Origin: an uncultured Candidatus Saccharibacteria bacterium
GTDB lineage: Bacteria > Patescibacteriota > Minisyncoccia > Sungbacterales > HO2-52-23
Direction of reading: 5' to 3'
Assembly: GCA_964585475.1 (NCBI GenBank)
Contig: CAZPDF010000001.1
Span: 1,441-65,440, forward strand
Length of the DNA: 64,000 bases
The position numbers and the translations under genes are program-made. This document shows positions 28,569 to 28,750 of this stretch, in pieces. Under the pieces are notes generated by a model. The model ran no database searches. It had not been told where the DNA came from and saw only the letters and a program-made list of their open reading frames with translations. Positions within the stretch are counted from its first letter, which is position 1; each line of letters begins with the position of its first letter.

Positions 28569-28750
28569 GCCCGAGTAACTCAGTGGTAGAGTAGCTGCTC
28601 GGCCCGTTAGAAAATATGCCAAAGTAGCTCAGCTGGTAGAGCAACGGTTTCGTAAACCGTAGGTCGTGGGTTCGAATCCCACCTTTGGCTCAACATTTCT
28701 AACGGACTAAATAAACAGCAAGTCGCGAGTTCGAATCTCGCCTCCGGCTT
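28569..28750 (+). repeat. tRNA-Thr locus with flanking split tRNA-like halves and inverted repeats
   Basis: 5' tRNA-like fragment GCCCGAG TA ACTC AGTGGTA GAGT A GCTGC TCGG (28569-28602). IR CCCGTTAGAAAATAT. Intact tRNA-Thr. IR ACATTTCTAACGG. Then ...CAGCAAGTC GCGAG TTCGAAT CTCGC CTCCGGC T (28713-28750). The fragment acceptors pair 6 of 7. Confidence 0.5.
28618..28690 (+). tRNA. tRNA-Thr(CGT)
   Basis: GCCAAAG TA GCTC AGCTGGTA GAGC A ACGGT TTCGTAA ACCGT AGGTC GTGGG TTCGAAT CCCAC CTTTGGC T. Confidence 0.85.

Follow-up and report, generated by a model that had tools for sequence, protein, structure and literature searches.

Nested tRNA-Thr genes in a Candidatus Sungbacteria genome: a probable scar of serial tRNA gene replacement by a MITE-like foldback element

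The DNA studied here, called the window, is a stretch of 64,000 nucleotides from contig CAZPDF010000001.1 of assembly GCA_964585475.1 (positions 1,441 to 65,440). It belongs to a cellular CPR (Patescibacteria) bacterium, a Candidatus Sungbacteria: the closest relatives of its GatB protein, at 65–76% identity, carry the names Candidatus Sungbacteria/Sungiibacteriota or Parcubacteria. The window encodes GatB, two ClpB-like ATPases, a class A penicillin-binding protein, HtrA, MacB/FtsX transporters and a peptide chain release factor, as well as a cysteine desulfurase-type aminotransferase and a NifU-like protein of iron-sulfur cluster assembly. A phage origin was ruled out by this cellular gene content and by the lack of any match in the phage collection. 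A Pfam search of the approximately 59 window ORFs revealed no recognisable transposase, recombinase, reverse transcriptase, RNA ligase or splicing endonuclease; one NYN-domain protein is encoded at 59666–60457. The window also contains a tRNA cluster in the order Ser, Val, Val, Glu, followed by gatB and then Gly, and this cluster is common to the syntenic loci of relatives (L001, L003/L004 and L005), which were fetched through their GatB homologues.

The locus of primary interest occupies positions 28569–28749 of the forward strand and is surrounded by a gene for a ClpB-like ATPase, small unannotated ORFs and the gene for the release factor, which has an RF-1/PCRF domain. Here, the order of features is a tRNA 5′ half, an inverted-repeat arm, an intact tRNA-Thr(CGT), the matching arm and a tRNA 3′ half. 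This is the geometry given by the initial annotation, which likened it to loci for Ser and Glu; every sequence element that it quoted for the Thr locus was found in place, and the two minus-strand loci are indeed built in the same way.

The outer 5′ half (28569–28601) spans the acceptor, the D-arm, the 5′ strand of the anticodon stem and the loop up to C34 G35, and its anticodon loop has one nucleotide too few. Together with G28602, the piece extends over 28569–28602, GCCCGAGTAACTCAGTGGTAGAGTAGCTGCTCGG, and reads GCCCGAG TA ACTC AGTGGTA GAGT A GCTGC TCG(G). It is followed by the left element terminus or arm (28602–28617), which consists of G and CCCGTTAGAAAATAT and belongs to the terminus family of CCCCGTTAGA. 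Its core, CCGTTAGAAA, pairs with 28696–28705. The inner, intact tRNA-Thr(CGT) lies at 28618–28691 and was identified both by ARAGORN and by Rfam (RF00005, 76.2 bits at 28618–28690). The right terminus (28692–28711) is composed of AACA, the core TTTCTAACGG at 28696–28705 and ACTAAA; compared with family copies, this arm is degenerate and the GGGG-CAAG end of the family is absent. The outer 3′ half (28712–28749) then comprises T36 A37 A38, ACAGC, AAGTC, the T-arm GCGAG-TTCGAAT-CTCGC, the acceptor CTCCGGC and the discriminator T, and ends with CTCCGGCT. The sequence CAGCAAG, placed ahead of the T-arm fragment in the initial annotation, is present; what it covers is the outer anticodon stem (3′ strand, ACAGC) and the variable loop (AAGTC), and the 3′ half therefore begins further upstream, at 28712 (TAA ACAGC).

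The insert is approximately 110 nt in length, 74 of which are tRNA. The arms CCGTTAGAAA and TTTCTAACGG form 10 perfect base pairs, or 13 of 14 when extended. With up to two mismatches allowed, the window has a single arm pair at this spacing and 100 dinucleotide shuffles have none. In the RNAfold prediction (z = -4.1), the inner cloverleaf is enclosed by the arm helix. The stretch that joins the outer 5′ half, the arm and the inner tRNA was also assembled independently, in a Logan contig that is identical to the window here. For the exact proteins encoded around the locus, only one short contig matched, and it breaks off within the nest. A scan of 28400–28800 for a promoter or terminator found none.

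What was the outer gene? When the inner tRNA was removed with varying amounts of flank, junction-spanning cloverleaf calls appeared along a diagonal of junction choices. Joining 28601 to 28712 (...GCTGC TCG / TAA ACAGC...) results in a 71-nt cloverleaf with a 6-nt anticodon loop, which ARAGORN calls '?(Thr|Tyr)'; once the missing loop T is added, the call becomes tRNA-Thr(CGT), with C4.C69 and C31.A39 as mismatches. As the spliced flanks yield a Thr-type cloverleaf, the outer gene is a former tRNA-Thr(CGT), of the same identity as its guest and split between anticodon positions 35 and 36. The suggestion that both flanks derive from one former tRNA gene is thus sound, and so is the reported pairing of six of seven acceptor positions, the mismatch being C4.C69. 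The junction first proposed (CTCGG joined to CAGCAAG...) gives no tRNA, and neither does removal of the arms alone. With introns allowed, ARAGORN calls no outer gene.

These pieces could in principle be the exons of a working gene. Here, the inner tRNA and its arms would be a true intron, cut on both sides, with ligation of the outer halves and release of two mature tRNA-Thr molecules, as a bacterial counterpart of archaeal intron/bulge-helix-bulge processing. The joined halves do fold into a cloverleaf and the arm helix would bring them together. In addition, 35/36 is the position reported for group I introns within the Asn and Asp tRNAs of Patescibacteria (Nakagawa et al. 2026, PMC13011429). 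Against this, the spliced outer Thr tRNA has three structural defects, namely the 6-nt loop and the two stem mismatches, and the insert is too short for a group I intron, with no match to a group I or other ribozyme. At the gathering threshold, no Rfam intron family matched the window; at E ≤ 5, none matched positions 1–40000, which hold all three nests. A gene of the EndA or RtcB type is absent from the window, and none is reported for Patescibacteria in the literature searched. Further evidence on this point comes from the other nested loci.

The second nested locus of the window (11789–11976, minus strand) contains an outer and an inner tRNA-Glu(TTC). It is arranged as outer 5′ half (11976–11941), TTCA, arm CCCTCCCACTTTT, inner gene (11920–11846), arm AAAAGTGGGAGGG, CAAG and outer 3′ half (11823–11789). 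The third (2284–2923, minus strand) has four layers of tRNA-Ser(CGA), counting the inner gene at 2670–2584. The first outer layer is formed by 2724–2688, 2556–2545 and 2443–2408, and its variable loop is also interrupted by a different element of approximately 100 nt (2544–2444). Layer B (approximately 2864–2738 plus 2336–2284) has arms of its own, TCCCGGACAAAAC and GTTTTGAACGGGA, pairs at only five of seven acceptor positions and carries a D-loop insertion, while the outermost layer, A, is reduced to a 5′ half at approximately 2923–2882. All four orphan T-arms of the window come from the Thr, Glu and Ser nests.

Nesting recurs in relatives and differs between them. Val(TAC) and Val(GAC) are nested in L003/L004. 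L001 likewise has nests at both of its Val genes, and between these two loci lies a gene of the 2′-5′ RNA ligase family. The insert in Val(GAC) of L003 is in the D-loop, not the anticodon loop. The Val genes nested in L001 and L003 are un-nested in the window, and conversely the Glu gene nested in the window is un-nested in L001, L003 and L005. In L005, Glu and Val are un-nested, Ser is nested in an older layer and relics are found at the Thr locus. Thus, there are empty/filled pairs for copies that carry a tRNA as cargo: Glu is filled in the window and empty in L003, and the Val genes are filled in L003 and empty in the window. The negative control was a GatB scan of species-representative genomes, in which the matches listed were mostly non-Sungbacteria Parcubacteria (50–57% identity) and also served as a source of tRNA-free copies; among them, no nesting was found in 80 loci of other Parcubacteria with approximately 40 tRNAs.

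A metagenome collection was searched with a pattern that does not depend on the arms: a T-loop, GGGCAAG and a second T-loop, spaced too closely for tandem genes. This returned at least 120 stretches, and in 19 of the first 80 pattern loci an inner tRNA was called, most of these being clearly nested. Across the window and all fetched loci, flanking arm helices occur at 39 of 132 tRNAs, approximately 26 being of the CCC.../...GGG type. The search for such arms at other tRNA loci, which had been proposed as a check, was therefore positive, with these approximately 26 tRNA-carrying copies in relatives and metagenomes. Their hosts are genes for Val-TAC/GAC/CAC, Glu, Gly, Ala, Ser, Thr, Phe and Ile. 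The copies lie in loops of the host gene, co-oriented with it, in up to three or four layers, and host and cargo have the same identity wherever both are legible; in 17 of the 21 cases that are legible, outer positions 34–35, read by eye, agree with the inner anticodon. In the unbiased sample (the window, L001, L003 and L005), every cargo copy is inside its cognate gene and none is intergenic.

The arms are not confined to tRNA genes. Both the window and related genomes are rich in the motif CCCCGTTAGA / TCTAACGGGG, and the Thr unit is bounded by CCCGTTAGA... and ...TCTAACGG(G), as are dozens of other copies. In the window and in other contigs, many inverted arm pairs 50–240 nt apart enclose unrelated, tRNA-free intergenic sequence; such copies are also present in contigs labelled Wildermuthbacteria, Staskawiczbacteria, Minisyncoccia and others. 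On either side of the tRNA-free copies stand TNNA direct repeats (TGAA, TAAA, TTTA, TTGA, TCCA), which are equally readable as 2 bp plus A/T tips. One of them, TCCCGTTAGAAGC ... GCTTCTAACGGGA (7083–7207, element 7087–7203), is situated between a sigma-factor gene and a DUF5667 gene with a TGAA duplication, and its orthologous site in L005 is empty: a single ATGAAG corresponds to ATGAA-element-TGAAG in the window. A related foldback element, CCCCGTTACAAG ... CTTGTAACGGGG (55103–55220, element 55107–55216), is flanked by TTTA on both sides, and a degenerate intergenic copy, CCAGTTAGAAAAAC ... TTTTTCTCTAACGGGG, lies at 5132–5231. The TNNA direct repeats and the empty orthologous site give the tRNA-free copies the signature of a MITE/foldback DNA transposon.

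Within this family, the Thr arms are somewhat degenerate: their terminal CCCC/GGGG is eroded and the right end has no CAAG. Other arm families behave in the same way around tRNAs: CCCTCCCAC (window Glu and L003 Val-GAC) and CCCGCAC/CCCGCC (window Ser, L003 Val-TAC, L155 and L176). The arms are far better conserved than the tRNAs between them, which fits termini constrained by a recognition function, whether by a transposase or in RNA processing. The approximately 1.9 Mb of the window and fetched loci yielded neither a transposase or recombinase for this family nor a longer element with the same termini and a transposase; the only long pair with family termini (L001, 12661–14344) encloses HicAB and a methyltransferase. 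With both gathering and permissive thresholds, Rfam recognised only tRNAs and had no match for the arms or for the second, approximately 100-nt element of the Ser locus. An arms-only pattern gave five chance matches in GC-rich DNA of a viral collection.

The junctions of the cargo-carrying copies follow a rule of their own. In Val, Glu, Gly and Ala hosts, the order is outer ...N32–N35, TTCA, CCCC-arm, inner tRNA, arm-GGGG, CAAG and N38..., with the host C36 A37 present only once, that is, effectively replaced by TTCA-element-CAAG. These copies have TTCA on the left and CAAG on the right without a duplication; the Thr copy has G on the left and ACTAAA on the right, and in D-loop copies the flanks are reverse-complemented (CTTG ... 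TGAA). Several origins for TTCA/CAAG were considered and none fits all cases: target duplication of 4 bp or 2 bp, crossover by a tyrosine or serine recombinase, IS91-like CTTG targeting, the P1/omega-G rules of group I introns, and inheritance of the flanks from a former Glu, Gly or Val-CAC host.

These junctions bear directly on whether the outer genes could be spliced. At most cargo loci, a 7-nt cognate loop is not restored by any single contiguous excision; for the common TTCA/CAAG type, every such excision results in the wrong anticodon or in a loop of 9 nt. For the window Glu, three contiguous excisions give Lys(ttt), SeC(tca) or a 79-nt call, and only a non-contiguous “CA” repair restores Glu(TTC). 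An intron is favoured by some outer genes that are structurally perfect and can be restored exactly: the L003 Val-GAC D-loop copy (read by eye) and the window Ser (CTCGA / element+CAAG / AA), the latter after removal of the second, unrelated variable-loop element as well. In addition, the conserved TTCA and CAAG flanks could form an RNA motif, with UU/AG pairs beside a CA/CA internal loop. The bulge-helix-bulge motif consists of two 3-nt bulges separated by 4 bp. Hand-drawn Thr, Ser, Glu and Val junctions instead have a 3-nt bulge, 2–3 bp, a 2×2 loop and a long helix, which is not a bulge-helix-bulge.

The constancy of the flanks raises a second alternative, to insertion by a transposase: the cargo unit could be a small circular cassette inserted by a site-specific recombinase. 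Its joined ends, ...TCTAACGGGG-CAAG/TTCA-CCCCGTTAGA..., would form a lox/dif/attC-like site with 11-bp inverted arms and an 8-bp spacer, and the target would be the dyad-symmetric anticodon stem-loop. The anticodon stem-loop is a classic attB of tRNA-targeting integrases and the insertions do lie in tRNA loops flanked by stem symmetry, with TTCA on the left and CAAG on the right in place of a duplicated target. The integron core consensus is GTTRRRY / RYYYAAC, with which GTTAGAT / ATCTAAC of the arms agree. An arm-TTCA-arm junction is present in L012. This alternative is nevertheless unlikely: no integrase or recombinase gene adjoins any copy examined, attL and attR lack the common overlap sequence needed for tyrosine or serine recombination, a circular form was never observed and the tRNA-free members of the family have ordinary target duplications and a clean empty site.

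Comparison with relatives suggests which of the nested genes is the resident. A conceptual outer Glu from the window has 95% identity with the tRNA-Glu of L003, which is uninterrupted, and where the two differ within the anticodon stem the changes are compensatory; for the inner Glu, identity is 81% with this L003 gene and 88% with the Glu gene of L001. Similarly, the outer Ser of the window is 82–84% identical to the Ser genes of L003 and L005, and the inner Ser 66–72%. Judged by these identities, the outer genes resemble orthologous residents, and the inner genes resemble newcomers from a different lineage; for Glu this is only suggestive because both Glu types occur at the syntenic site in relatives. 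The arrivals are not copies of one gene that spread recently, since in six Val-TAC nests the identities inner to inner (0.76), outer to outer (0.73) and inner to outer (0.75) are alike; the cargo tRNAs are as diverse as the host tRNAs.

The same comparisons argue against a local origin of the nest, in which tandem or partial duplications of tRNA-Thr, followed by deletions and with no mobile element, left a whole copy between two halves. It is true that tRNA genes duplicate, that inner and outer genes share their identity and that deletions between repeated arms occur (L119). Inner and outer genes are, however, only approximately 74–81% identical, and the inner Glu resembles the gene of another lineage. 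Moreover, the insertion points are precise and within loops, the same conserved arms surround different tRNAs in many unrelated metagenomes as well as non-tRNA interiors, and duplication makes no inverted-repeat arms. A purely local rearrangement is therefore the most improbable of the explanations considered.

The outer layers decay, and the decay grows outwards through the layers, as in the Ser nest of the window, Val-TAC of L001, L105, L119 and L182. In the middle layer of the L001 Val-TAC nest, the 3′ acceptor CATCTTC is unable to pair with GGGTGCT. The Val-CAC nest of L105 has three layers, the outermost with a broken anticodon stem; the middle layer of L119 has lost its 5′ half, apparently by deletion between repeated arms; and the Gly nest of L182 also has three layers. 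Further insertions without cargo interrupt some outer genes (the variable loop of the window Ser, Phe of L201 and a T-loop of L005). After repair of the junction, 11 of 18 outer genes are still called as cognate and 7 are not. Positions 34–35 of the anticodon, read by eye, are mutated or lost in four of the 21 legible cases, which functional genes are not known to undergo. The stems of several outer genes (window Glu, the first outer Ser layer of the window and L003 Val) pair perfectly and contain compensatory differences relative to orthologues, as would also be expected of a still-functional gene.

For Thr itself, the fate of the outer gene can be followed in a second lineage. Downstream of an intact tRNA-Thr, L005 has an arm relic and an orthologue of the outer 3′ half of the window (approximately 20715–20748), identical at 29 of 35 positions; its T-stem is broken and a 5′ half is missing. 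Beyond it lies a second Thr 3′ fragment, whose T-loop holds an empty hairpin element. Because the orthologue of the outer 3′ half is present in L005, the Thr nest predates the split between the lineages of the window and L005, and in one of these lineages, L005, the outer relic is demonstrably junk.

On this evidence, the intron or split-gene reading of the Thr locus is disfavoured, by inference, and we regard it as very unlikely: outer layers decay progressively, lose halves and mutate anticodon bases, and in approximately 20 analogous loci a single contiguous removal usually fails to give a 7-nt cognate loop. The initial annotation had implied an interrupted gene with rejoined halves, an idea that is unsupported both by the best Thr junction and by the orphan state of the L005 orthologue. 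It had also allowed that the flanks might simply be tRNA remnants, and this is probably what they are, with the insertion of a mobile element that brought the replacement tRNA as their origin.

The Thr locus is an old, eroded example of a larger phenomenon, and is probably the scar of serial tRNA gene replacement by a cargo-carrying foldback (MITE-like) element and not a spliced or split tRNA. A resident tRNA-Thr(CGT) would have been split at 35/36 by an element with termini CCCGTTAGA... and ...TCTAACGG, which enclosed a complete, co-oriented tRNA-Thr(CGT). The cargo tRNA would then have taken over decoding, making the inner tRNA-Thr the presumed working gene and leaving the outer halves dispensable and free to decay. 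The region may be transcribed as one precursor from the upstream signals of the old gene, with the inner acceptor stem prolonged by a 10–13 bp helix of the paired arms. The inner tRNA would subsequently be freed by RNase P and 3′-end processing enzymes, and the outer pieces would be discarded.

A stronger version of this replacement model can be put forward only tentatively, and we consider it somewhat less probable than its negation. Here, the elements would be selfish “tRNA-replacement” foldback elements, and each would be directed into the 35/36 loop of a resident gene for the same tRNA, be expressed from the signals of that gene and become indispensable by destroying it. Repeated invasions would produce nests and horizontal turnover of tRNA genes in CPR bacteria, and the TTCA...CAAG flanks and the cognate location would reflect dedicated targeting or processing, as opposed to chance survival. 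The exclusive presence of cargo copies in cognate genes is not obviously predicted by random transposition followed by survival of the viable.

Each of the known systems that resembles the nests differs from them in important respects. Bacterial MITEs and foldback elements (Correia of Neisseria, RUP, ERIC) are likewise short, non-autonomous and dispersed, with conserved terminal inverted repeats, short target duplications, presence or absence at orthologous sites and a long hairpin if transcribed. The hairpins of Correia elements are cut by RNase III. Unlike these, the subfamily described here carries a complete tRNA gene, occurs only inside the cognate tRNA gene and in the same orientation, and has TTCA...CAAG flanks without duplication; furthermore, no transposase partner was found for the family. 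Genomic islands and prophages that integrate into tRNA genes, using tyrosine integrases and an attB in the anticodon or T-loop, also target symmetric stem-loops and keep the tRNA functional. They encode their own integrase, restore only the displaced 3′ part of the tRNA and leave a distant 3′ fragment as a direct repeat, whereas the unit here is approximately 105 bp, has no protein gene, brings a whole tRNA and is immediately surrounded by both old halves. Neither an adjacent integrase nor a distant direct repeat of the tRNA 3′ segment was found at the Thr locus.

Archaeal disrupted tRNAs (bulge-helix-bulge introns, split and permuted genes) are similar in that the halves are joined by a flanking helix and in that anticodon, D, variable and T loops are interrupted. 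In contrast, the nests are in a bacterial genome (peptidoglycan synthase, GatB, ClpB), lack both a bulge-helix-bulge and a known endonuclease, have as their “intron” a tRNA whose identity equals that of its host, and contain outer genes that decay. Unlike split or permuted genes, the two halves of the outer Thr are in cis and in 5′–3′ order, 110 nt apart. The group I introns of Patescibacteria (PMC13011429) share with the nests the phylum, the tRNA hosts, the unusual 35/36 site and the fact that the interrupted gene is missed by standard tRNA finders. The nests differ in consisting of arms of approximately 30 nt plus a tRNA, with no ribozyme core and no Rfam match, in a 5′ exon that does not end in U and in that excision would not restore a normal loop. 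That paper makes no mention of nested tRNAs or inverted repeats. The literature searched, whose coverage is incomplete, held nothing relevant on nested tRNAs, MITEs in tRNA genes or a splicing endonuclease of Patescibacteria. Replacement of a tRNA gene from within is thus an apparently undescribed phenomenon.

The nests account for orphan tRNA halves and fragments, which annotation pipelines pass over or might misread as introns or split genes. They may also account for assembly breaks, as one contig ends inside a nest. The layers constitute a record of successive invasions that can be dated relative to one another, and the 35/36 site shared with group I introns of the same phylum hints at a common vulnerability, or a common recognition, of this loop position. 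If the replacement model is correct, essential single-copy tRNA genes of streamlined CPR genomes would be repeatedly overwritten from within by mobile units with a tRNA copy of their own, which would provide a route for the horizontal turnover of tRNA genes and constitute a form of addiction by replacement.

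Termini of the foldback family can exist with almost no interior, as is shown by an empty copy that consists of a 30-nt hairpin (CCCCGTTAGAT GCTTGGCT ATCTAACGGGG) at positions 20782–20811 of L005, one of the related loci fetched via GatB homologues. This hairpin interrupts a relic 3' fragment of a tRNA-Thr gene within its T-loop, which shows that tRNA loops, even those of dead genes, receive element termini. A single outer gene can also carry two insertions. Metagenome contig L201 has both a nested tRNA-Val(TAC) and, neighbouring it, a nested tRNA-Phe(GAA) (about 6380–6660, minus strand, and the Phe locus). 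Here, the cargo copy occupies site 31/32 of the Phe gene, and an additional hairpin, which is empty (CCCCGTACCAAAAC..GTTTTGGTTCGGGG), lies 3' of the intact anticodon loop, so that two insertions are present in one outer gene.

The window also contains a tRNA-free foldback copy (7083–7207), which lies at the very end of the coding sequence of a sigma-70-family gene, in its final codons. The C-terminus of the encoded protein is thereby altered, reading ...HHESR* in the window versus ...TMKFNQ* in L005, and the stop codon is supplied by the terminus of the foldback copy itself (GTTAG). In L001, a locus from the complete Sungiibacteriota genome CP066690.1, two copies of foldback-family termini flank a 1.7-kb segment (12661–14344) encoding a HicA/HicB toxin–antitoxin pair and a methyltransferase. 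This segment is possibly a composite element that mobilises the toxin–antitoxin module. The same locus has a gene of the 2'-5' RNA ligase/2H-phosphoesterase family (PF13563; 3084–3629) between its nested Val(TAC) and nested Val(GAC); the matching interval of the window is occupied by an unannotated ORF (8379–8987) and a PNPOx-like gene.

The tRNA-Ser nest of the window harbours inserts of a second kind, each of approximately 100 nt. There are two copies, which have diverged from each other: one interrupts the outer tRNA-Ser at its variable loop (2544–2444, minus strand), and the other lies in an older Ser layer, within the D-loop (about 2846–2753, minus strand). The insert contains three hairpins: GCGAAA..TTTCGC, GGG..CCC around a conserved GUGCGAACGU, and UGGG(G/U)UUUGCCGA(C)GAAGGCAA. 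It has no match in Rfam. Possibly, this is a further small element, mobile or a structured RNA, with tRNA loops as its target.

Elsewhere in the window, a weak tRNA-Pro(TGG) (16850–16922, minus strand; 42 bits with Rfam, and found by ARAGORN at a relaxed threshold only) overlaps a mechanical ORF (16527–17090) for which Pfam gave no match. The tRNA in question is possibly divergent or in decay. Two ClpB/Hsp104-type AAA+ genes are present less than 30 kb apart (25564–28092, minus strand; 56631–59306, plus strand). In the protein encoded by the first, a Clp_N domain was not detected and the first AAA module gave only weak, sub-threshold Pfam matches (AAA_22, AAA_16). Among the window's proteins, the sole candidate for an RNA nuclease that was noticed is an NYN-domain protein with a PIN-like ribonuclease fold (59666–60457, minus strand), which scores just over the Pfam cut-off and which nothing ties to the nests.

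An independent assembly contig, L089 (Logan SRR8863434), is identical to window positions 25165–28663 and ends within the inner tRNA-Thr of the Thr nest. Short-read assemblies seem to break at nested tRNA loci and, consequently, metagenome bins may contain too few of them.
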